Shown: one piece after another, positions 19,565 to 51,432 of the stretch | Position numbering within the stretch: position 1 is the first letter of the stretch | Layout: every line of letters begins with the position of its first letter | IMG/VR virus record: IMGVR_UViG_2531839662_000025 | Length of the DNA stretch: 58,745 nucleotides | From: a virus | Taxonomy: Duplodnaviria; Heunggongvirae; Uroviricota; Caudoviricetes | Direction: 5' to 3' (one strand) | Made by a program: the position numbers and the translations under genes | Notes under the pieces: generated by a model | Told to the model about the DNA's origin: nothing | The model's input: the letters and a program-made list of their open reading frames with translations, nothing else | Databases searched by the model: none

Positions 19565-20290
19565 TTAAAGCGAGCGAATACCAACGCTGACCAGATGCTC
19601 AGACAGATCCGGCTCCGGTTCACCGCCATTGACCAGCATCCGGCTCATTGCTGTAAACATCGCAACAGGACCGTCGATTTTGGCTTCCGGCGTGGATTTA
19701 TTCGGGAAGATATTGTTGTTTTTGTCCGGTTTCACCGTAACGTTAGACATCATCCAGTTCATGACCGGGTGATTGCTGTGGTGGAAACGTCCGGCATAGA
19801 CCAGTGATTCCGTTTCCTTCATGGCCTCTGACAGATTGCGGACCGTCTGCGGAACTTCCACCAGCGGTATACCTTCTTCAGCCAGCGCCAGACTGAACTG
19901 CATTGCGCTCCACGGGTCAAATCCCAGTTCCCTGAGGTTTTCACCGCCAATCCATTCCAGTAAGTCACTTTTTATCTGAGCATGATCGATAACATCACCA
20001 TCCGTCAGGATGAGCTTATCCATCTCCGCCCACTTCCGGTAAAGTTCTGCCTGCTGCCGCGAGCATCGCTCCAGCCGTCCTTCCGGAAGCCAGAATTTAA
20101 AATCAGCATGAACATGTCCGTTATCGGTTCGCCAGAGTTTTGCCGCCGCACAGATATCAATCTTATGAGCAAGGTCGACGCCGACCCACATGGGATATGT
20201 TTTCAGCTCATGTTGTGGAGCAATGTATTCGCACTTCTCCCACTTAATCATATCCATCCAGGCAGATTCGGCAGTGACCCACACATTCAT
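19565..20290 (-). pseudogene. terminase large subunit, C-terminal (nuclease) fragment of the host prophage
   Basis: 241-aa ORF aligns by eye with the C-terminal third of the intact TerL at 20817-22478; N-terminal two thirds lie 15 kb away at 35283-36303. Confidence 0.8.
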
Positions 20291-20816: not shown

Positions 20817-22478
20817 TTACACACCATCAAACGTCGCAAGCCGCTCTTTGTGGCTGTCGCTCATATCGAATGCAAATTCCTCATGCTCTGCCTGGAATGT
20901 GCCAAACGCCATCAGCGCCGCAACGCTCGGGTCTATCTTGTTGGATGATTTTTTCTTGTTCGGCTTGATATTGGCGTTCGCGTCACTCTGCATCACAACA
21001 TTACTCATTGACCAGGCCAGCACCGGATCACCACGATGCACAATCACCTTCCGGTTAACAAAAACTTCGAACGATTTCGCCGCCGGACTGAAACGAAGGT
21101 ACGTTTGCGGGAACGGCTCCACCTCAAATCCTGCGCCCTGTAGCTGCGTCCTCAGGTGCGTGGCGTTCCATGTATCGAAACCCACCAGCCTGATATTGAA
21201 ATTCTCTGCATCCGCCATGATGTCATCACGGATACGGTCATAATCAATGCAGTCACCCGGTGTTGTGCGTATCCAGCCCGCCTTTACCCACTGGCGATAG
21301 ATGGCGCGGTTTTTATTGGCGGGGTTCTGTAGCTGAAATTCCGGCAGATAGTGACGGGAAACCAGCATAATCTTTTTACCGACCGGAAAGGCATAGCACA
21401 CGCTGGAAATATCGCTGGTTGATGATAAGTCCAGCCCCGCGTAGCACTCCTGCCCGTATAAATCCGCCTCCGCGAACGTTCCGGCGCACTCCGCCCATGC
21501 ACCGTTACCCATCCACGGCGTGGCCCCCTGACACCAGATATTGAATCGCTTGGTGAGCATTTCCACCCACTGCGACGGAATACCCCGCGCTTTCTGGATG
21601 GTTGAGGCCAGTTTTTCACGATCGACGGAAACATCGATATTGGGATTCGCCTTTATCCACATCGCCGGATCGTCAACCTCGCTTTCATCATCCAGCTCGT
21701 AAATCAGCACGAACATGGATTCGTTCACCTCTTCACCATCCAGTATCTGGCAGCAATAGTCGTAGTGTTGTTTACAGGCTGAAACAACGTTGCTCCCCGA
21801 TGTGGTGATGGCAAATAATAACCCCTCCGGACGCGCCCCCATTCCCAGTTCAAGCGCGGAATAAACCCCGTTGTCAGGGTGCAGGTGATATTCATCCACA
21901 ATGGCAAGACTCGGGTTTGTACCTTCAATGGTTGCCGCTTTTGCTGCCAGTGGCTTTAACAGGCTGTTGGTTTTCGGGTGTATCACCTTGTGTGCCTGAA
22001 TATTTACCCGCTTTCGCAACGGTCGGGATAAAAGGCACATCTGACGCGCATCATCAAACACGATCCGCGCCTGATCACGACTCACGGCGGCGGTGTAAAT
22101 ATCCTGCTGCCCGTTTTCCATAACCAGAAACCAGTTAGCCAGGATAGCGGCGACCGTGGATTTGGCATTTTTTCGCGGCACTTCAATGAATGCGCTGGTG
22201 TATTTGCGCCGTCCGGTGGCCTTAACCTTAAAGCCCAGGATGCACGCAAAGGCGAACTGCTGCCACGGCTCCAGCTCAATGGGGCTACCGCGCATTGCGC
22301 CTTTTACGTGCGGACACACCCTGGAAAAGGCAATAAACCGCTCCACGACCTCCGGATCGAACGTGTAAAGGGGGTTTTCAAGGTCAGAAAAATACCGTTT
22401 AACGGCCTGTTTCAGTCGTTTACAGGCCGTAATTTTGCCGTTTTTTACGCCTTCTGCGTACTCATGCCAGGCGGTCAA
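20817..22478 (-). CDS. terminase large subunit (satellite-encoded, intact)
   Basis: 553-aa ORF with ATPase and nuclease halves. Confidence 0.85.
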   Translation of the reverse strand: MTAWHEYAEGVKNGKITACKRLKQAVKRYFSDLENPLYTFDPEVVERFIAFSRVCPHVKGAMRGSPIELEPWQQFAFACILGFKVKATGRRKYTSAFIEVPRKNAKSTVAAILANWFLVMENGQQDIYTAAVSRDQARIVFDDARQMCLLSRPLRKRVNIQAHKVIHPKTNSLLKPLAAKAATIEGTNPSLAIVDEYHLHPDNGVYSALELGMGARPEGLLFAITTSGSNVVSACKQHYDYCCQILDGEEVNESMFVLIYELDDESEVDDPAMWIKANPNIDVSVDREKLASTIQKARGIPSQWVEMLTKRFNIWCQGATPWMGNGAWAECAGTFAEADLYGQECYAGLDLSSTSDISSVCYAFPVGKKIMLVSRHYLPEFQLQNPANKNRAIYRQWVKAGWIRTTPGDCIDYDRIRDDIMADAENFNIRLVGFDTWNATHLRTQLQGAGFEVEPFPQTYLRFSPAAKSFEVFVNRKVIVHRGDPVLAWSMSNVVMQSDANANIKPNKKKSSNKIDPSVAALMAFGTFQAEHEEFAFDMSDSHKERLATFDGV

Positions 22479-22818
22479 GCTCGTCCTCTTCCTCTGTTTC
22501 CGGTGGATTTCTGCGGCGACTTACCGGGTCAAAACCCAGCAAAGAAGCCATTTTGATCATTATTCTTTCCGCGTCAGCCTTTGCGCTCAGGGCGGGGTTT
22601 CTGCTCTCGCTGCCCTGACTGTTAACAATGCTGAACCCGCGCGTGGCAAGGTCTTCGACGGCTTTGCGGTATATGGAGTAGTTAACGCAATACAGCTCCA
22701 GATTGCTCCAGTCGGCGGGGGTAAGGTCTTCCCGTCCGGAAAGCTGGCGCGATTTTTCCTTCCACTGCCTGACCGCGATTTCATCCAGGTAAGCGGGGGC
22801 TTTTGGTGGTCTTGCCAT
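22462..22818 (-). CDS. terminase small subunit (P27-family-like)
   Basis: Track ORF 22462-22959; likely start MARPPKAP at 22818; upstream of TerL. Confidence 0.65.
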   Translation of the reverse strand: MARPPKAPAYLDEIAVRQWKEKSRQLSGREDLTPADWSNLELYCVNYSIYRKAVEDLATRGFSIVNSQGSESRNPALSAKADAERIMIKMASLLGFDPVSRRRNPPETEEEDELDRLA

Positions 22819-23106
22819 GTTCTTTTTTCGCCCAATTATTTTCAAAAAAAATCCCGTGCACAAAAATTTGAGGAGGCGGTCGGTGTCCGGCAGGGACGGT
22901 TTCGTCCTGAAAACCTCCCCCACCCCCTCTGACAGCCTCACCAGCGATTGCGAAAACATTCCATGACCTCGCGGTCACGGTCGGTTAATCGCTTCGCTGT
23001 GGTGCGTTCTGTGCGCCCTGTCCTGTTAGCTTTGTGCCCTGTCTCCTGTGTCTTCCATAAGTCACGCTGCCTTATCAGTCCACGTATCAGCCTGTTTTGC
23101 TCCTGT

Positions 23107-30964: not shown

Positions 30965-31260
30965 TTTTTACCTCTGGATGCGCTGAGCATGCTTTTTATT
31001 TTCTTAATATTTTCCCGTGCTTTTTCCCTGCTGGTGGGCTTACCGCGTGTTGCGTTCTGTACCAGAGAAAAATCACGCCGGAACTGATAAACAGGCATCA
31101 CGCAGTCATAGCCGTACCCATCACGGCGGTAAGTAACACACCGTCCCGCCACGCTTTTAATCGTTACAGTGCCGCCGTATTTATCTTTGAAAATATCGCC
31201 GGGGCGGATTTCAGGCCGAGCGGGGCCGCTGGCAGTAAAGCCAGAATTTTTCTGTTTCAT
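30961..31260 (-). CDS. hypothetical protein
   Basis: 99-aa ORF overlapping primase start. Confidence 0.45.
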   Translation of the reverse strand: MKQKNSGFTASGPARPEIRPGDIFKDKYGGTVTIKSVAGRCVTYRRDGYGYDCVMPVYQFRRDFSLVQNATRGKPTSREKARENIKKIKSMLSASRGKK

Positions 31261-31265
31261 GGTTT

Positions 31266-31493
31266 TTATTCCGCGTTTATTTTTTTATCGTGAATTTCGA
31301 TCGCTTTATTTAATTCGACGATTACCGTATCGAGTAATGAAATAAACGCACCAGCAAGATTAGATTCACGTTCATCTTCCGGCGCATCACTTAAACCATC
31401 AAGCCAGATAAGCAATATTTGCCGCAAACATTCACTGTTAGTCAGTGCGTTTTCTGCATGGCTCATTGATTTTAAATAACTGTCATCATGCAT
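31266..31493 (-). CDS. hypothetical protein
   Basis: 75-aa acidic ORF. Confidence 0.4.
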   Translation of the reverse strand: MHDDSYLKSMSHAENALTNSECLRQILLIWLDGLSDAPEDERESNLAGAFISLLDTVIVELNKAIEIHDKKINAE

Positions 31494-31689
31494 GGCTCAC
31501 CCCCTGACGAATACGGGCGGCGAATACCATCACACAGCCATCAGGAGATTGCTGGCGTGCTTCCTGTTCGCTGGTGGCCTCGATGTGAATTACGCGCGGT
31601 TGTGCCGTACTCAGGGCGATAAAACGCCAGATATATTTATTCAGGTTGTGCGAGTCCCGCCCTTGCGGGTGTGTGGTATGATTTAACAT
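31486..31689 (-). CDS. hypothetical small protein (67 aa)
   Basis: C-terminal part of the 357-aa track ORF; begins MLNHTTHP just downstream of the divergent promoter region. Confidence 0.35.
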   Translation of the reverse strand: MLNHTTHPQGRDSHNLNKYIWRFIALSTAQPRVIHIEATSEQEARQQSPDGCVMVFAARIRQGVSHA

Positions 31690-31766
31690 AGCTACCTCGA
31701 TACTCTTGCTATCGTTGGTGGTTAGACGCCCTGCATGTGTTGCGAGCACTGCGGGGCGTTGCTTAA

Positions 31767-31867
31767 TTTGAGTGACAAAACTCAAACTGTGCGCACAGAT
31801 TAAAATCATGTGTGCGCACATGTCAATACTTAACATCTCATTTTTTTTGCTGTATTGTGTGCGCCCA
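31767..31867. promoter_or_regulatory. divergent regulatory region with palindromic operator-like sites (TGTGCGCACA)
   Basis: Perfect palindromes at 31788-31797 and 31808-31821, half-site at 31856-31867, inverted repeat at 31767-31786. Confidence 0.5.
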
Positions 31868-31894
31868 TAAAGTCCATTTAAGTGAGGTGCATCA

Positions 31895-32092
31895 ATGTCT
31901 AGCGGTAACACAAACAACAAATCAGCAAAGAAAAATATTCGATTCCCACATGAGCTTATAGATGGGATTGATGCCAGCGTTGAACAAGAAAAATTAACTA
32001 ATCCTAGTGCTAATTTTTCCGCATGGGTCTTAGATGCCTGTGGACGCAAATTAAAATATGAACAGCGCCGGAAGGCCAAAGAATCAGAATAA
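31895..32092 (+). CDS. small putative DNA-binding regulator of the satellite
   Basis: 65-aa ORF transcribed away from the operator-containing promoter region. Confidence 0.4.
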   Translation: MSSGNTNNKSAKKNIRFPHELIDGIDASVEQEKLTNPSANFSAWVLDACGRKLKYEQRRKAKESE

Positions 32093-32134
32093 TCACTATC
32101 AGCGCCGTGGTGTGAGTAACTACGGCGCATTGCT

Positions 32135-32323
32135 ATGCAGGACAACACAATGACCGATAAAGAATTGACCAAAACATTATCACCGACACGGAAAAGACGG
32201 CGCAGAAAGATAGAGCATGAATCAGAAAGATTCGCACCTTGTTCGTTTGCTCTTGAGAAATTCCTTAAAGAGCGCAGGAAAAAGCTCTCGTTGCAAACCC
32301 TGGAACGAACCAAATCTGACTGA
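32135..32323 (+). CDS. small basic hypothetical protein
   Basis: 62-aa ORF followed by a plus-strand terminator. Confidence 0.35.
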   Translation: MQDNTMTDKELTKTLSPTRKRRRRKIEHESERFAPCSFALEKFLKERRKKLSLQTLERTKSD

Positions 32324-32389
32324 TCACATTGCCCACCAGCCGCAAATGTGGCATTGTTGGTGATGCTTTTGTTTTCCCTTGTTCCCACT

Positions 32390-32419
32390 GGCGACCCTTT
32401 TGCGGTCGCCTTTGTTTTG
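32390..32419 (+). terminator. rho-independent terminator
   Basis: GGCGACC/GGTCGCC stem followed by a T-run. Confidence 0.55.
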
Positions 32420-32703
32420 CCTGTTATCCGGCAATAGTGGCGCTTCGTCACCTGTCTGATATAATTCCACAGCTTATATTCATTTTTTGCGCAGTAGGTT
32501 AATTGTTCGCAAGGGCGCTCCGGCAACGGGGCGCTTTTTGTTTTTACCCACCAGCACAATAAAAATCTTCATTTTCCATTTTTGTAAAATTTCATGCTTT
32601 CCGGACGACTGGTCATATGTCATTTTTTAGCAGAAGATTTTGCCTTGCTGGTGGGTAGCTTCCCGGTCAACACGATGTACCGTATAATCAACACCGCGTG
32701 TGG

Positions 32704-33282
32704 TTACTGAATACGCTCACCAAAGTAAAACTCAGGCTGGTATTCACGTATCAGCCTTTTTTCTTCTTCCTCCAGCTCACGCTTTTTGCGCTTACATGCC
32801 TGTAGCTCCCTCCCCTTCTCACTGGCACTTATCTGGTATTGCTCTTTGCGGCGGGAAAAATCCTGTAATGCGCCCCACGGGATACCATAAGCCCCCGTTT
32901 TTCTGATACCCGGTATCACATTTCTGAATACCCAGTTACTGAAACGATGAGCAAATGTGCCAGGCGTCGTTGCTTTGCGGCTGCGGGCTATTAGTTTGTA
33001 GAAACCTGACTCGGAGATAATGCTCATATTCTGATTTCCTCCGGGGGTGTAAGTTAAATTTACTCCCTTTTCGTCATCATCAAGCATCTGCAACGCCGTA
33101 CGCGAATTGGTCAGTTCCAGCGCAGCACAAACATCCTTTGCAACAAACCACGGATCGCCGTTTAGATACACCACACGAACATCCACGCCATCAAAGCGCA
33201 GAACGACCAGATCACGAATATCACAGAATTTTTTCACATGACGTGCGTCACCCTTGCCCGTCACGGCAATATTTTTATTCAT
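32704..33282 (-). CDS. Bro-N domain protein (antirepressor-like)
   Basis: 192-aa ORF with Bro-N-like N-terminal region. Confidence 0.55.
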   Translation of the reverse strand: MNKNIAVTGKGDARHVKKFCDIRDLVVLRFDGVDVRVVYLNGDPWFVAKDVCAALELTNSRTALQMLDDDEKGVNLTYTPGGNQNMSIISESGFYKLIARSRKATTPGTFAHRFSNWVFRNVIPGIRKTGAYGIPWGALQDFSRRKEQYQISASEKGRELQACKRKKRELEEEEKRLIREYQPEFYFGERIQ

Positions 33283-33301
33283 TGCTTTTTACCTCACATA
33301 C

Positions 33302-33328
33302 AAAAAACCCCGCATTGCGTGGTGCGGG
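33302..33328 (-). terminator. rho-independent terminator
   Basis: 7-bp GC-rich stem followed by U-run on minus strand, after the AlpA-like gene. Confidence 0.6.
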
Positions 33329-33339
33329 GTTGTCGGTAA

Positions 33340-33618
33340 TTACTTATTGGCGTTTTTGTATGGGCTGTTTACTTCCTTTACTCCTGGCGGATGCATAACC
33401 CACCAGAGCACATCAGAGAGCAACCAGGAAACAGACACTTTCCCTAAATGAGCACGAGCAGGAAATGCTCCCTCCTGTTCAAGTACCCAACGTCTGCTTC
33501 TTGAAAGCCCGGTACGATTGGCACACTCATGTTCGCGTATACGGCGATCATACGGTTCGCCATGATCTTTCAGAATCTGAATGCGTTCTTCGGGTGTAGG
33601 ATAAATAAATTTTTGCAT
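33340..33618 (-). CDS. AlpA-family regulator / excisionase-like
   Basis: Track ORF 33340-33648; likely start MQKFIYP at 33618; small HTH protein. Confidence 0.55.
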   Translation of the reverse strand: MQKFIYPTPEERIQILKDHGEPYDRRIREHECANRTGLSRSRRWVLEQEGAFPARAHLGKVSVSWLLSDVLWWVMHPPGVKEVNSPYKNANK

Positions 33619-33681: not shown

Positions 33682-33915
33682 TCAGGGTTTCCATTCACCT
33701 TTTACCCATTCCAGCACCTCAGATAAGCGCCAGACTTTTGTTTGTGGGCCAATACATATTTTTCGTGGAAATTTTCCTTCCTTTTCAAGTAACGATCTGT
33801 GTCTCCTGCCAAGAGCGGTTAACCATGCACATTCATCTTCCTTAATCATCCTGTCGATTGTTTCATCATTTTCAAGTTCTTCACGCGTAACTATTTGAAT
33901 CATTACTGTCACCAC
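33682..33915 (-). CDS. AlpA-family regulator / excisionase-like
   Basis: 77-aa HTH ORF next to integrase. Confidence 0.55.
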   Translation of the reverse strand: MVTVMIQIVTREELENDETIDRMIKEDECAWLTALGRRHRSLLEKEGKFPRKICIGPQTKVWRLSEVLEWVKGEWKP

Positions 33916-35104
33916 TAATTTGCTTATTCAGATAGTCGTACCACCAGTTCATAGCTTCTTTTTTTCTGTCCATATACTGGCTTCTGTTATAAACCCCGGC
34001 AACACCGCCTAATGTGTGCCCAAGCAACTGTTCAACCACATTATGTTCAAAACCATGATCACTTAGTTTTGTGGCAAACACTCTTCGCATATCATGCGCC
34101 GTCCATTTCTCCGAGTGTTTCATCCTTTTCCATGTCTTACCGATAGTTACGCTTGCCGTACACTGACGCATATCAAACCCAATCACATTTTCTTTGTTAC
34201 CTGTTATTTTTTTTAACGTAACTAACCAGTTAAACATGCCATCAGGAATCGGTCTGATTATTTCCCTGCCATTTTTGCTATGATCAGCGGGAACGCGCCA
34301 TAATTTCTTATCAAAATCCCACTCTACCCAGGACGACAGTAATACTTCTGACAGTCGACAACCAAAAACTACCAGGAAACGTAAAATAATTCGGTTTTCA
34401 TATGATAATTCGTGATTGTCATAATCAGTATTAATACTTCGCCATAAATCTCTGATTTCATCATCTGTTAAAACCCTGCTTCTTCGCGCAGACTTTTTTC
34501 CCACATCACAGACCTCAAGATCATCAATTTCATGACTAATCGCGTATTTTCTTACCCTACAAAATTTAAGCGCCTGTTTTGATATACGCAACAAAGCTCC
34601 GGCCTGTACAGGTGCTACTTTTTTTATTTTGTCAAAACACTTAATCCACATAGATATAGAGCAATCACTAAGTGGTACATGACCAATCACCGGATAAATA
34701 TGTTTACCAAAGCACTGCCTGATATGTTCTGCTCCCCTACGCTTATCCATTGCATAATTATCAAGCCAGTATTCAAGTGCCTCACGAACGGTAACAGGTT
34801 GCAAGGTGGCTTCCCGTTCAATTTTTATCTGAATCCGTGGATCTCTGCCCTCCGCAAGCCAGGTTCGACACTGATCGCGCATCTCTCTCGCTGATTTGAG
34901 ACTCAGATCAGGATATTTTCCAAGTGTCAGCCAGATGGGCGCGGTTCCCCTTCCCGCCAGTCTGTAAAAGAAAACAAAACTAACACATCCGTATTTACTG
35001 ACCCGTACCGAAAGCCCGTTACCATCAGCGATGGTTTCCTGCCTCTCACTCCTGCGTCCAAGCAGGGAACGAAGTTTTTTATCGCTCAGTTTGTTTAGCG
35101 CCAT
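33881..35104 (-). CDS. tyrosine integrase (P4-type)
   Basis: Track ORF 33881-35140; likely start MALNKLSDKKL at 35104; P4-type N-terminal arm-binding pattern and C-terminal catalytic region. Confidence 0.8.
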   Translation of the reverse strand: MALNKLSDKKLRSLLGRRSERQETIADGNGLSVRVSKYGCVSFVFFYRLAGRGTAPIWLTLGKYPDLSLKSAREMRDQCRTWLAEGRDPRIQIKIEREATLQPVTVREALEYWLDNYAMDKRRGAEHIRQCFGKHIYPVIGHVPLSDCSISMWIKCFDKIKKVAPVQAGALLRISKQALKFCRVRKYAISHEIDDLEVCDVGKKSARRSRVLTDDEIRDLWRSINTDYDNHELSYENRIILRFLVVFGCRLSEVLLSSWVEWDFDKKLWRVPADHSKNGREIIRPIPDGMFNWLVTLKKITGNKENVIGFDMRQCTASVTIGKTWKRMKHSEKWTAHDMRRVFATKLSDHGFEHNVVEQLLGHTLGGVAGVYNRSQYMDRKKEAMNWWYDYLNKQISGDSNDSNSYA

Positions 35105-35124
35105 GTGATTTATAACCCGTTTTT

Positions 35125-35145
35125 GCAATACACAGTGCAATACAC
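35125..35145. repeat. arm-type repeat GCAATACACAGTGCAATACAC
   Basis: Direct repeat of the motif at 20377-20397. Confidence 0.5.
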
Positions 35146-35275
35146 AAATGATGAAAACAGCCAGAACCTTCCAGAAAAAACAAAAACGACGAACAAGAAA
35201 AAATCTTTTTCTTTCATTTGGTTACTAAAAAAATCAGGACAGGTCGCACTGTTGTTACGGCGTGATGTTACTTTC

Positions 35276-35290
35276 TTGGTAAAAAAATTC
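35276..35290. repeat. putative att core (right junction of satellite)
   Basis: TTGGTAAAAAAATTC at the point where the host terL reading frame is lost. Confidence 0.5.
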
Positions 35291-36303
35291 ACCCGCGCAG
35301 AGACCTGCTCCTTCGCTTTTTTCGCCAGACGACGCAGATCATCCCAGCGTTTACAGATGCCCAGGCCAGGATTCGCTTTCTGCCAGACCGTTTCATCAAA
35401 CGGATCATCTCCCTCATCGAGCGTGTAAATGATCGCAAAGTAGGAGTCGTCTTTTACCGCGCCCTCCACGTCGCTGTTATAGCCTCGCAATACCTTAATG
35501 GCGTAATCGCGCTGCTCGTAGCAAATCCCTTCCTTGTTAAAGCCAGCCGTGGTGATGCCAAATAACAGAGACTGCAGACGGGCACCGGTTGCCGTTTCCA
35601 GAACGTCCCACACGTCACGGGTTTTATGAGCATGCAGCTCATCAATAATGGCGCAGTGGATGTTCAGACCGTCCAGGTTGTTTGCATCCGAGGAAAGCGG
35701 TTCAAATTTTGATGCGCTCTGCTCCTGGTAAATCGCCAGCTTGTTGAAATCAAACAACCGCCCGAGTGTCGACCGGGCTTTTCTGACCATATTTTTGGCG
35801 TCTTCAAACACAATTCTGGCCTGGTCACGCGTGGTTGCGGCTGAATACACCTCAGCACCGCCTTCACCATCTGCCCCCGTCATATACAGGCCGATACCCG
35901 ATGACAGGGTTGATTTTGCGTTTTTACGGGCGACTTCGTTGTACGCCGTCCGGAACCGGCGCACCATCACCGGACGTCCGCTGCCATCGCTGCGTATGAC
36001 AACTTCCCCGGTCTCTTCATTGACCAGCGGAATGACAAAACCAAAAATATTAATGAGGATAAATACATGCCAGTCCATCAGTTCAATGGGCTGGCCTGCC
36101 AGCGCCCCTTTTACATGGGGCACAAATTTGTAGAAATTCAGGATGTGCTGCGCACGGGGTTCACTGAAATAAATCCCCCGCTCTTCGCCGTACTTCAGAT
36201 CATCAAGAAAACGCTGGCAGGCCAGACGGACAAATTCGCCAGCGACAATTTCTCCTGCAACAACACGTTCGGCGTAGCGGATCCCGTCAGCCACTTTTGC
36301 CAT
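35283..36303 (-). pseudogene. terminase large subunit, N-terminal (ATPase) fragment of the host prophage
   Basis: Track ORF 35110-36303: first ~345 aa are TerL-like, then the frame runs into satellite sequence and becomes low-complexity. Confidence 0.8.
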
Positions 36304-40270: not shown

Positions 40271-40345
<75 letters not shown>

Positions 40346-40348
40346 ATA

Positions 40349-40424
<76 letters not shown>

Positions 40425-44717: not shown

Positions 44718-44870
44718 TTACTTCTCAGATTCGTAGTCCACGAAGACAGCAACCTCCGTCTGGCCGGTTCGGATTCGTACCTCACAGAGGTCTTTCCTCG
44801 TTACCAGTGCCGTCACTATGACGGTTAAACAGATGACGATCAGGGCGATTAACATCGCCTTTTGCTGCTT
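44718..44870 (-). CDS. hok: Hok/Gef-family type I toxin
   Basis: 50-aa MKQQKAMLIALIVICLTVIVTALVTRKDLCEVRIRTGQTEVAVF; track ORF extends in frame upstream to 44930. Confidence 0.85.
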   Translation of the reverse strand, partial: KQQKAMLIALIVICLTVIVTALVTRKDLCEVRIRTGQTEVAVFVDYESEK

Positions 44871-45132
44871 CATAGCCTGCTTCTCCTTGCCTTTCGGCAC
44901 GTAAGAGGCTAACCTAGATTTGCCGTTCATAGATTGAGCCTCAGATTAATGTTAAGCGTCTTGCAGGACGCGTAATGTTAACTGGGGCTTTTCTCTATCT
45001 GCCTTTTGGTGTTCATGCCTGAGACAGATAGCCTCAAGCACCCGCAGTCATTCTACTTAACTAAGATTTCCCCGCAAACCGTTTTTGTCCGGCACAGTAA
45101 ATATCCAACTAAACCAATGGCGTTCGCTGTAT

Positions 45133-50484: not shown

Positions 50485-51432
50485 TTACCCCCTGAACCCC
50501 GGCGGAATTTCGGTGTCCGGTTCAGAAATGTGATTCACGCAACGCTGTACAGGCGAACGCCCCAGACGAATAACCAGCTCATCCCATTTTTCGCGAAGCT
50601 TTGACGGGCTCATGACGTTTTTTACCCAGAATGGATCCCGCTGTACCCGACCAAACATTTCGCAAATTTGTCTGTGAGTTCTGCCATCCAGCATCCGCAT
50701 TGTGCGCACATCATTGGCCCATGCAGTCCAGTTGGGTTCTTTCGGTCGCATGATTTCGCCATCATCGCTGGCAGCCTGCTCGTAAAGACTCACGATTCGT
50801 CCCCAGATCCACTGCGCACACGCTAAATCTTCCTGGCTGCCCCACTGGCGTTTTTTCGCACTGAACACAACCGCGTCAGGGTGTCGGGTTAAAAAATCCT
50901 GTTCAGCCGTCTGCGAGTCCGGTTGCGAAGCTTCCGGACGAAAAGATCTTTTATCTGACGGATCAGGTTTTAATACTGACGGATCGGGGCCAACCATCGC
51001 CCCCCTAACCGGATGTTTTTTATCAACGGTTGATCCATCAAAATTTGAGGGGTCAATCGTTGAGGGGTCAATATTTGACGGGTCATTTTTTACCGGGTTA
51101 ATTTTTCTTTTCGGTTTATATGCCTCACGCGCCGCCGCTGCTGCTGCTTCGAGTTTTTCCACATTAAGACGGTAGATATTGCTTTCATTACGCCCACCGA
51201 CCTTACGTTCTTCCTTCGTCAGCCAGCCGTTCTTTTCCAGTTCTGCTATCGCAGCTTTAACCGTTGATTCACTCTTTGCCCCAATCTGACGACGAATGGT
51301 CTCCACTGCAGGCCATGACACACCTTCGTCATTGCTGTAATCTGCAAGGCGAGCCATTACTGCCACCCTGGATAAGATCATGCCGGTGAAGGCACACCCT
51401 TCCCAGACAAGACCATGAAGCTTGCTGCTCAT
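50485..51432 (-). CDS. replication initiation protein, lambda O-like
   Basis: 315-aa ORF: N-terminal HTH, internal peptide repeats (DPSNIDPSTIDPSNFDGSTVD) encoded by DNA iterons. Confidence 0.7.
   Translation of the reverse strand: MSSKLHGLVWEGCAFTGMILSRVAVMARLADYSNDEGVSWPAVETIRRQIGAKSESTVKAAIAELEKNGWLTKEERKVGGRNESNIYRLNVEKLEAAAAAAREAYKPKRKINPVKNDPSNIDPSTIDPSNFDGSTVDKKHPVRGAMVGPDPSVLKPDPSDKRSFRPEASQPDSQTAEQDFLTRHPDAVVFSAKKRQWGSQEDLACAQWIWGRIVSLYEQAASDDGEIMRPKEPNWTAWANDVRTMRMLDGRTHRQICEMFGRVQRDPFWVKNVMSPSKLREKWDELVIRLGRSPVQRCVNHISEPDTEIPPGFRG
50954..51106. repeat. origin iterons inside the O-like gene
   Basis: Tandem TTGAGGGGTCAAT / TTGACGGGTCATT / TGACGGATC repeats followed by an AT-rich stretch. 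Confidence 0.6.

Follow-up and report, generated by a model that had tools for sequence, protein, structure and literature searches.

Gene content of the satellite and its control region

The window, i.e. the whole stretch of 58,745 nucleotides analyzed here, corresponds to the chromosome of E. coli UMNF18 with 100% identity, and the element at approximately 20.3-35.2 kb is a capsid-forming PICI-type satellite inside the terL gene of a prophage. The terL gene of the helper, a lambdoid prophage, is split by the satellite into two parts (35110-36303 and 19565-20290), and the satellite genes lie on the same (minus) strand. The integration and replication genes encode an integrase (33881-35140, minus strand), two AlpA proteins, Bro-N, a DUF927 primase, SSB and PerC, while the late genes encode the major capsid protein, protease, portal, connector, HNH, TerS (22462-22959, minus strand) and TerL (20817-22478, minus strand), the latter two being complete, which is the full set of capsid-forming PICIs. 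By this gene content and the co-oriented insertion into terL, the element is a capsid-forming, helper-embedded Gram-negative PICI (HE-PICI), an arrangement that the Williams laboratory has reported before (PMC10111431). In its prophage part, the window also contains the sok antitoxin RNA of a hok/sok type I toxin-antitoxin system (44868-45043, minus strand; 112 bits with Rfam), and two tRNA genes are found at 40274-40424.

On the minus strand, the integrase gene is followed by the two AlpA genes, Bro-N, the control region, the leftward operon and the genes from capsid to TerL. The leftward operon consists of the Icd-like gene (31486-31689), an ORF of 75 aa, DUF4222, the DUF927 primase-helicase, SSB and PerC. 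The only satellite genes on the plus strand are the gene of a 65-aa DUF3950 protein (31895-32092) and an ORF of 57-62 aa (orf62, 32150-32323). The original prediction had placed a palindromic operator array between the leftward operon and two rightward small ORFs, and the sites do lie between the start of the Icd-like gene at 31689 and that of the 65-aa ORF at 31895; both rightward ORFs are present in the window, but the second one is not conserved outside E. coli.

The Icd-like protein (67 aa; the name is that of RefSeq) is encoded by the first gene of the leftward operon. It matches phrog_1743 (E=1.6e-23), which is also matched by residues 73-137 of the P4 ORF (E=7.5e-21), and this similarity marks it as a homolog of Kil, the C-terminal part of the P4 eta/kil ORF. 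The gene is preceded by the 5' leader of the leftward transcript (31690-31765, minus strand) with hairpins at 31726-31759 and approximately 31697-31713, the latter adjoining the ribosome-binding site. Five base pairs of the leader show compensatory changes, and the leader is also found in many genera; no Rfam family matched 31690-31765.

A long frame of 357 codons (31486-32559, minus strand), in frame with the Icd-like gene, runs across the leader, the three putative operators described below, both predicted promoters and the antisense strand of both rightward ORFs. Of 51 related loci, 45 have this frame open over 150 codons or more, with a median of 300, and loci with swapped cassettes are among them; the other two minus-strand frames are open for 10-50 codons in related loci. 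PGAP calls its N-terminal part a partial pseudogene, and its pieces are labeled "Icd-like (pseudo)", "hypothetical" or "transcriptional repressor" in public records. A Kil-homologous first early gene nested in a longer in-frame ORF together with a predicted early promoter is the arrangement of P4. The C4 and isrK RNAs, however, had no Rfam match in the window at the gathering threshold, nor at E<=5 in 31200-33400, and 19 related loci likewise had neither, both being detected in the P4 control; P4-type RNA immunity was therefore rejected for these elements. The P4 genome, in turn, has no DUF3950 gene.

Three putative operators and two predicted promoters

The first of the predicted palindromes, TGTGCGCACA at 31788-31797, is present and extends to a perfect 12-bp palindrome, CTGTGCGCACAG, at 31787-31798 (site O1), which overlaps the last bases of the leftward -10 element and the predicted +1. 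The second had been given as the 14-mer ATGTGTGCGCACAT at 31808-31821; this string exists, but it differs from its reverse complement, ATGTGCGCACACAT, and its perfectly palindromic part is the inner 10 bp, another copy of TGTGCGCACA at 31811-31820. The corresponding site O2 (GTGTGCGCACAT, 31810-31821) fills the spacer between -35 and -10 of the leftward promoter. What had been taken for a further half-site turned out to be a full site, O3 (GTGTGCGCCCAT, 31856-31867), whose core TGTGCGCCCA at 31858-31867 is a 9/10 copy; O3 overlaps both the predicted +1 and the last bases of the rightward -10, and is presumed to be the autoregulatory site. The centre-to-centre spacings of the three sites are 23 bp and 47 bp.

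In the 58.7-kb window, no 10-bp palindrome other than that of O1 and O2 recurs within 100 bp, and any such pair appeared in only one of 300 dinucleotide shuffles. The count of the pattern with one mismatch (five found vs. 2.9 expected) is not significant alone. The real support for the putative operators is comparative rather than coming from chance statistics.

The inverted repeat TTTGAGT/ACTCAAA, which had been included in the predicted switch, is a perfect 7-bp one with a loop of 6 nt (31767-31773 and 31780-31786). It is disrupted in the 94%-identical PU-1 element (TTTGAGCAATGCAACCCAAA), and no equivalent was seen in other related loci; as it is not kept even in PU-1, it is probably outside the switch, and was dropped as a part of it.

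A fourth exact copy of TGTGCGCACA is found at 50701-50710 inside a replication-initiator-like gene of the helper prophage (50485-51432, minus strand); together with the flanking bases, the sequence is TTGTGCGCACAT, which agrees with O2 at 11 of 12 positions. We did not count this copy as an operator, one such match being an event with an estimated chance of approximately 5-25%; it could be due to chance or could be a trans target of the satellite repressor. In five loci of several Serratia, Pectobacterium and other relatives (L002, L003, L004, L011 and L017), a perfect DnaA box, TTATCCACA (plus strand TGTGGATAA), adjoins O1 approximately 10 bp to the left; the box is absent from the window.

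The predicted leftward promoter PL (31797-31826, minus strand) has the -35 hexamer TTGACA (31826-31821), a spacer of 18 nt and the -10 hexamer TAATCT (31802-31797), which is poor; an alternative -10, TTTAAT, would have a spacer of 16 nt. PL was not found by the promoter scan because of the hexamer rules of the latter. The predicted rightward promoter PR (31830-31858, plus strand), with TTAACA at -35 (31830-31835), a spacer of 17 nt and TATTGT at -10 (31853-31858), was found by the scan with a 9/12 match to the consensus, and O3 begins inside its -10. The -35 hexamers of the two predicted promoters are only 3 bp apart. Downstream, the rightward transcript would stop at two hairpins resembling intrinsic terminators (32390-32410 and 32511-32538, plus strand); on the minus strand, a T-run is absent from both.

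Conservation of the layout in related loci

The DUF3950 protein has many homologs in Enterobacterales. Using an alignment of these homologs, we retrieved 45 loci from Enterobacterales, Pasteurellaceae and Orbaceae, the genera including Serratia, Rahnella, Klebsiella, Pectobacterium, Enterobacter, Xenorhabdus, Brenneria, Pantoea, Proteus, Morganella, Arsenophonus, Gilliamella, Orbus and others. The DUF3950 protein was the bait for the collection of loci, and its constant presence is thus by design.

The same layout was observed in approximately 45 loci: a site, 23 bp, a second site, GTCAA, a T-rich stretch, a TATAGT-like -10 and one more site. The 23-bp spacing between O1 and O2 is kept in approximately 39 of 44 related loci, and a third matching site occurs at +33 to +35 from GTCAA in most loci. 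The GTCAA motif (TTGAC of the leftward -35) occurs unchanged in 38 of the 41 non-redundant loci, and a leftward -10 of the TAanGT type is conserved at the same distance across loci; the rightward -10 of the TATAGT/TATTGT type has the same offset in most loci, and the -35 of PR is poorly conserved.

Relatives from Rahnella, Klebsiella and Erwinia have the same TGTGCGCACA at the same three offsets, O3 being perfect there. Over all loci, the edges of the site, (G)TG...CA(C), are conserved and the six central bases are variable, the cores differing by element (for example, TGCGCA, TTTAAA, CAyAwA, GnACCC, TCCGyA, GGCCAC and TGTAGA). The identity of sites is 9.84/12 within an element vs. 7.78/12 between elements, and none of 5000 permutations reached the observed value, although the loci share descent and permutation p-values overstate their independence. 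The predicted operator array thus proved to be conserved in related elements of several genera as a three-site layout on two predicted back-to-back promoters, though the sequences of the sites differ between elements.

These observations bear on the possibility that the repeats, instead of being protein operators of transcription, serve the primase-helicase as iterons or as an origin of replication, or act as RNA or DNA hairpins on the leftward transcript. Origins of P4 and PICIs are built of short repeats (PMC6092414), O2 was flagged by the scan as a terminator-like hairpin on the minus strand, and several relatives have the perfect DnaA box beside O1. Nevertheless, we regard this explanation as most improbable, as in all loci the sites sit exactly on the -35, -10 and +1 positions of the two predicted promoters, the layout persists where the DUF927 replicase is unrelated or absent, and PICI origins have been described beside the rep gene (PMC6092414). 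Besides, hairpin formation is not a conserved property, because most operator types are non-palindromic (for example, GTGTGAACCCAC).

The DUF3950 protein and the second small ORF

The 65-aa protein (31895-32092, plus strand), the predicted repressor, is named a YlcI/YnfO family protein in RefSeq and matches phrog_949 (E=1.4e-27). It belongs to DUF3950 (PF13132; 28.3 bits vs. the cut-off of 25, E=1.6e-6), and PF13132 is matched by all 31 aligned homologs. A ribbon-helix-helix (RHH) fold is the likely one. In profile comparisons, RHH_1 is matched by one of the 31 homologs (E=0.24), the HicB-like antitoxin C-terminal (RHH) region by six of them (E of at least 0.036), and hhalign against Arc yields E=0.011 with a probability of only 3.7%; a PDB profile search with the 65-aa protein gave no match. 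Hhalign pairs KNIRFPHELID with FNLRWPREVLD of Arc, and the putative specificity residues, carried by the arm/strand ...SAKKNIRFP, come to lie accordingly: positions -3 and -1 before IRFP and the arginine of this motif fall on Q9, N11 and R13 of Arc, which are base-contacting residues. The alternate residues -1 and -3 are among those that co-vary with the 6-bp operator core (see below).

In the searchable literature, only passing annotations of DUF3950/YlcI/YnfO proteins or RHH repressors in satellites and no description of DUF3950 function were found; earlier work may exist in both cases. DUF3950 is also present in lambda and many Stx phages. For example, phage O276 (Lambdavirus; locus L055, 200-394) encodes a 43%-identical YlcI/YnfO protein approximately 200 bp from the right end of the genome. 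No comparable three-site array was seen upstream of the lambda-type YlcI/YnfO gene, and since the lambda homolog is without the array, the operator layout belongs to the satellite subfamily and not to DUF3950 genes in general.

The second rightward ORF (orf62; 32150-32323, plus strand) encodes a basic protein of 57-62 aa with the motif ERFAPCxFxLEKFLKE that matches phrog_21027, and is probably co-transcribed with the repressor gene. In-frame indels distinguish its homologs in E. coli PU-1 and B19695; they do not tell the coding strand. It is absent from all 45 cross-genus loci, and was dropped as a partner of the sites because of this absence outside E. coli. A hairpin, GCGCCGTGG...CTACGGCGC (32100-32134), separates the DUF3950 stop codon from the start of the second ORF. 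PU-1 and B19695 retain it in a changed form, and it may serve for attenuation or as a processing site.

Co-variation of the sites with the protein and exchange of cassettes

The distances between the ten residues preceding the invariant IRFP correlate with the distances between operators (Mantel r=0.68-0.71), and the correlation is retained when the C-terminal part of the protein, both spacers and the left flank are controlled for (partial Mantel r=0.67, p<0.0003, to be read with the above reservation on shared descent). The DNA between O2 and the gene shows no association with the operators (r=0.06), which argues against simple linkage. The information on the operator type is carried by residues -1, -3 and -4 before IRFP, while K(-2) and the arginine of IRFP are invariant. 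The tetrapeptide before IRFP is matched to the core as follows: xKKN to TGCGCA, x[YF]KG to TTTAAA, xTKG to CAyAwA, AKKH to GnACCC, and [KR]RKD to TCCGyA. Most likely, the central six bases and residues -1, -3 and -4 together define many heteroimmune specificity types.

The exchange of the region is seen in close relatives. The elements of E. coli B19695 and O103:H2 12009 are approximately 90% identical to the window until approximately 31760, in the leader, where the similarity between heteroimmune elements stops; this level of identity resumes with the last 35 nt of the gene. Their Icd-like proteins are 92-93% identical to that of the window, whereas their YlcI/YnfO proteins are only 30-34% identical and are accompanied by three matching sites of their own. 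Among E. coli genomes, 1529 match the leader (31690-31765), and 69 of them also cover the operators. In an O157:H7 relative, the place is taken by an unannotated CopG-like protein of 57 aa, a different RHH protein, with ATGGTAATTACCAT palindromes, and other cassettes were also seen. In these E. coli relatives, the operators and the gene are exchanged as one cassette, as is characteristic of immunity regions. The choice of the 65-aa protein as the candidate repressor is supported by both observations, the co-variation of its N-terminal arm with the sites and the joint exchange of the operators and the gene.

The same data were used to assess whether the sites are bound by another factor, be it a host protein, a helper-phage protein or the AlpA, Icd-like or Bro-N protein of the satellite, which we consider quite unlikely. 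AlpA is an established regulator of Gram-negative PICIs (PMC6092414, PMC11773190), but its distances, as well as those of the Icd-like protein and the integrase, do not correlate with the operator distance on the same loci (r of approximately 0). The Icd-like family is labeled "transcriptional repressor" in PHROGs, but this label goes back to the obsolete "cI protein" annotation of P4, whose immunity factor is an RNA, and the repressor function is also contradicted by the conservation of the Icd-like protein across cassette types, with 92-93% identity between elements that have completely different operators. A host factor could not track more than 15 different core sequences across genera, and Bro-N, like orf62, is missing from most loci that keep the layout.

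Several cassette genes are not annotated in public records. The RHH-type small gene of E. coli O157:H7 F8797 (L056, 2615-2788, plus strand) is unannotated, and a long antisense ORF is annotated instead. The same gap exists in Pasteurella phage Pmp7 (L050, 4853-5011, plus strand) and in vB_KppS-Ant (L051, 7364-7549, plus strand); these elements, of 10.7 kb and 16.5 kb, respectively, are deposited as phages, and their gene content is satellite-like.

A putative immunity repressor and its proposed mode of action

Taken together, the sequence comparisons suggest that the three sites are operators of the satellite's own 65-aa DUF3950 protein, most likely an Arc/CopG-like RHH dimer, which would act as an immunity repressor with autorepression. 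We consider this reading quite probable. The protein would be made from PR and would recognize sites of the form (G)TG-N6-CA(C). By binding O2 in the spacer of PL and O1 at its -10 and +1, it would keep RNA polymerase off the strong PL, thus silencing the genes of the Icd/Kil-like protein, the DUF927 primase-helicase, SSB and PerC, and those for capsid formation and packaging farther downstream. Occupation of O3, the weaker site, at the -10 and +1 of PR would limit the repressor's own synthesis.

Relief of repression may come from leftward transcripts starting upstream, from an AlpA-activated promoter or, in the helper-embedded copy, from the late operon of the helper, which would traverse the repressor gene in antisense and cross PL. 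If the long ORF is translated, such read-through transcripts could be protected from Rho, as described for P4 eta; according to PMC10111431, which cites Forti et al. (1999), eta translation on late-promoter transcripts prevents termination in P4. This step, suggested by the open reading frame and the analogy with P4, is more speculative than the rest of the model.

Alternatively, the DUF3950 protein could be a transient Arc- or Cro-like regulator, made after induction and re-silencing the early promoter, rather than a maintenance repressor. P22 Arc, its closest sequence look-alike, acts in this way, shutting the early promoter off again; the poor conservation of the -35 of PR across loci may mean that PR needs activation; and the quiescence of PICIs is currently explained by the lack of AlpA. 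On the other hand, PR in the window, with its 9/12 match to the consensus, has no obvious need for an activator, the gene (with orf62) is alone in being transcribed opposite to the AlpA-driven direction, which fits independent constitutive expression, and heteroimmune diversity of cassettes is typical of immunity repressors. A transient regulator therefore seems unlikely to us.

Returning to the immunity repressor, the original prediction called the region the master switch of the satellite. The operator and repressor part of this claim agrees with our results, while "master" exceeds the evidence, as the experimentally shown master regulator of Gram-negative PICIs is the AlpA activator (PMC6092414, PMC11773190). 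The module is more likely to be the immunity or maintenance half of the control. It might also be only a modulator, because Gram-negative PICIs have been reported to be controlled by AlpA with no need for a repressor (PMC6092414).

Implications

The global repressor of Gram-negative PICIs is described as not identified or unclear (PMC6092414), and no mention of a repressor in Gram-negative PICIs was found in the cf-PICI preprint or in PMC10111431. Repressor/operator switches and RHH repressors as such are familiar; a repressor in Gram-negative PICIs was not found described, and neither was a protein cassette replacing the P4 RNA immunity within an eta-like ORF in the searchable literature, although earlier work may exist on both. 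The module is thus a testable candidate for the missing maintenance or immunity function of Gram-negative PICIs, and suggests a likely role for DUF3950, a domain of unknown function. Satellites may be divided into heteroimmune groups, with consequences for exclusion between satellites and for their co-residence. The natural matched pairs of protein and operator would be a ready set of small orthogonal repressors for engineering. Since several cassette genes lack annotation in public records or have an antisense call in their place, satellite annotations could be corrected.

A broader, tentative picture, which we hold to be possible but on balance doubtful, is that enterobacterial PICI-type satellites (classical, capsid-forming and helper-embedded) carry interchangeable cassettes, in each of which a small RHH repressor is combined with its three cognate operators, in the homolog of the P4 RNA immunity region and antisense in a long eta-like ORF kept open by selection over the promoters, the operators and the gene on the other strand; translation of this ORF on read-through transcripts from AlpA-driven or helper late promoters would override the repressor. 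If so, the cassette types would define the immunity groups of satellites and provide a readable residue-to-base recognition code for DUF3950.

Comparison with known systems

The RHH proteins CopG (pMV158) and omega (pSM19035) serve plasmid copy control, unlike the putative repressor described here, and differ from it in the operator architecture and promoter arrangement. Stl of SaPIs and Rpr of Gram-positive PICIs provide a functional parallel: these are satellite-encoded repressors at a divergent control region, and the replication/packaging operon would in both cases be kept silent until the helper is active. Yet they are larger helix-turn-helix (HTH) proteins released by helper proteins, whereas the predicted fold here is different and no HTH was detected.

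The P4 immunity region (PLE, kil/eta and the CI RNA with seqA/seqC) occupies the same position, between the AlpA/Vis-Bro zone and the primase operon, with a Kil-homologous first gene and an early promoter inside a longer in-frame ORF. The immunity factor of P4 is, however, an RNA, C4 and isrK being detected in P4 and neither here, while the satellite has a putative protein repressor gene with its own predicted promoter, antisense inside the long ORF.

The lambdoid imm434/imm21 regions and the C repressors of P2/WPhi resemble the satellite module in that the repressor and the operators are swapped as a cassette between near-identical elements, leading to heteroimmunity, and in the tripartite operator on divergent promoters with a weaker autoregulatory site. 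The predicted fold of the satellite protein is RHH rather than HTH, and no Cro-like partner is evident, nor is a RecA-cleavable domain in its 65 aa.

Finally, the immI region of P22 (Arc and Mnt at Pant/Pmnt), like the satellite module as predicted here, combines small RHH proteins with operators overlapping two close divergent promoters, one of which drives the regulator itself, and the strand motif NIRFPHEL of the satellite protein is comparable to NLRWPREV of Arc and NFRMPMEV of Mnt. The differences are that DUF3950 is a distinct Pfam family without significant sequence match, that there are three 12-bp sites here and single operators of 21 bp and 17 bp in P22, and that the target is the satellite replication and morphogenesis operon beginning with the Icd/Kil-like gene rather than an antirepressor. 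Unlike P22 immI, the satellite module appears to exist in many heteroimmune variants.
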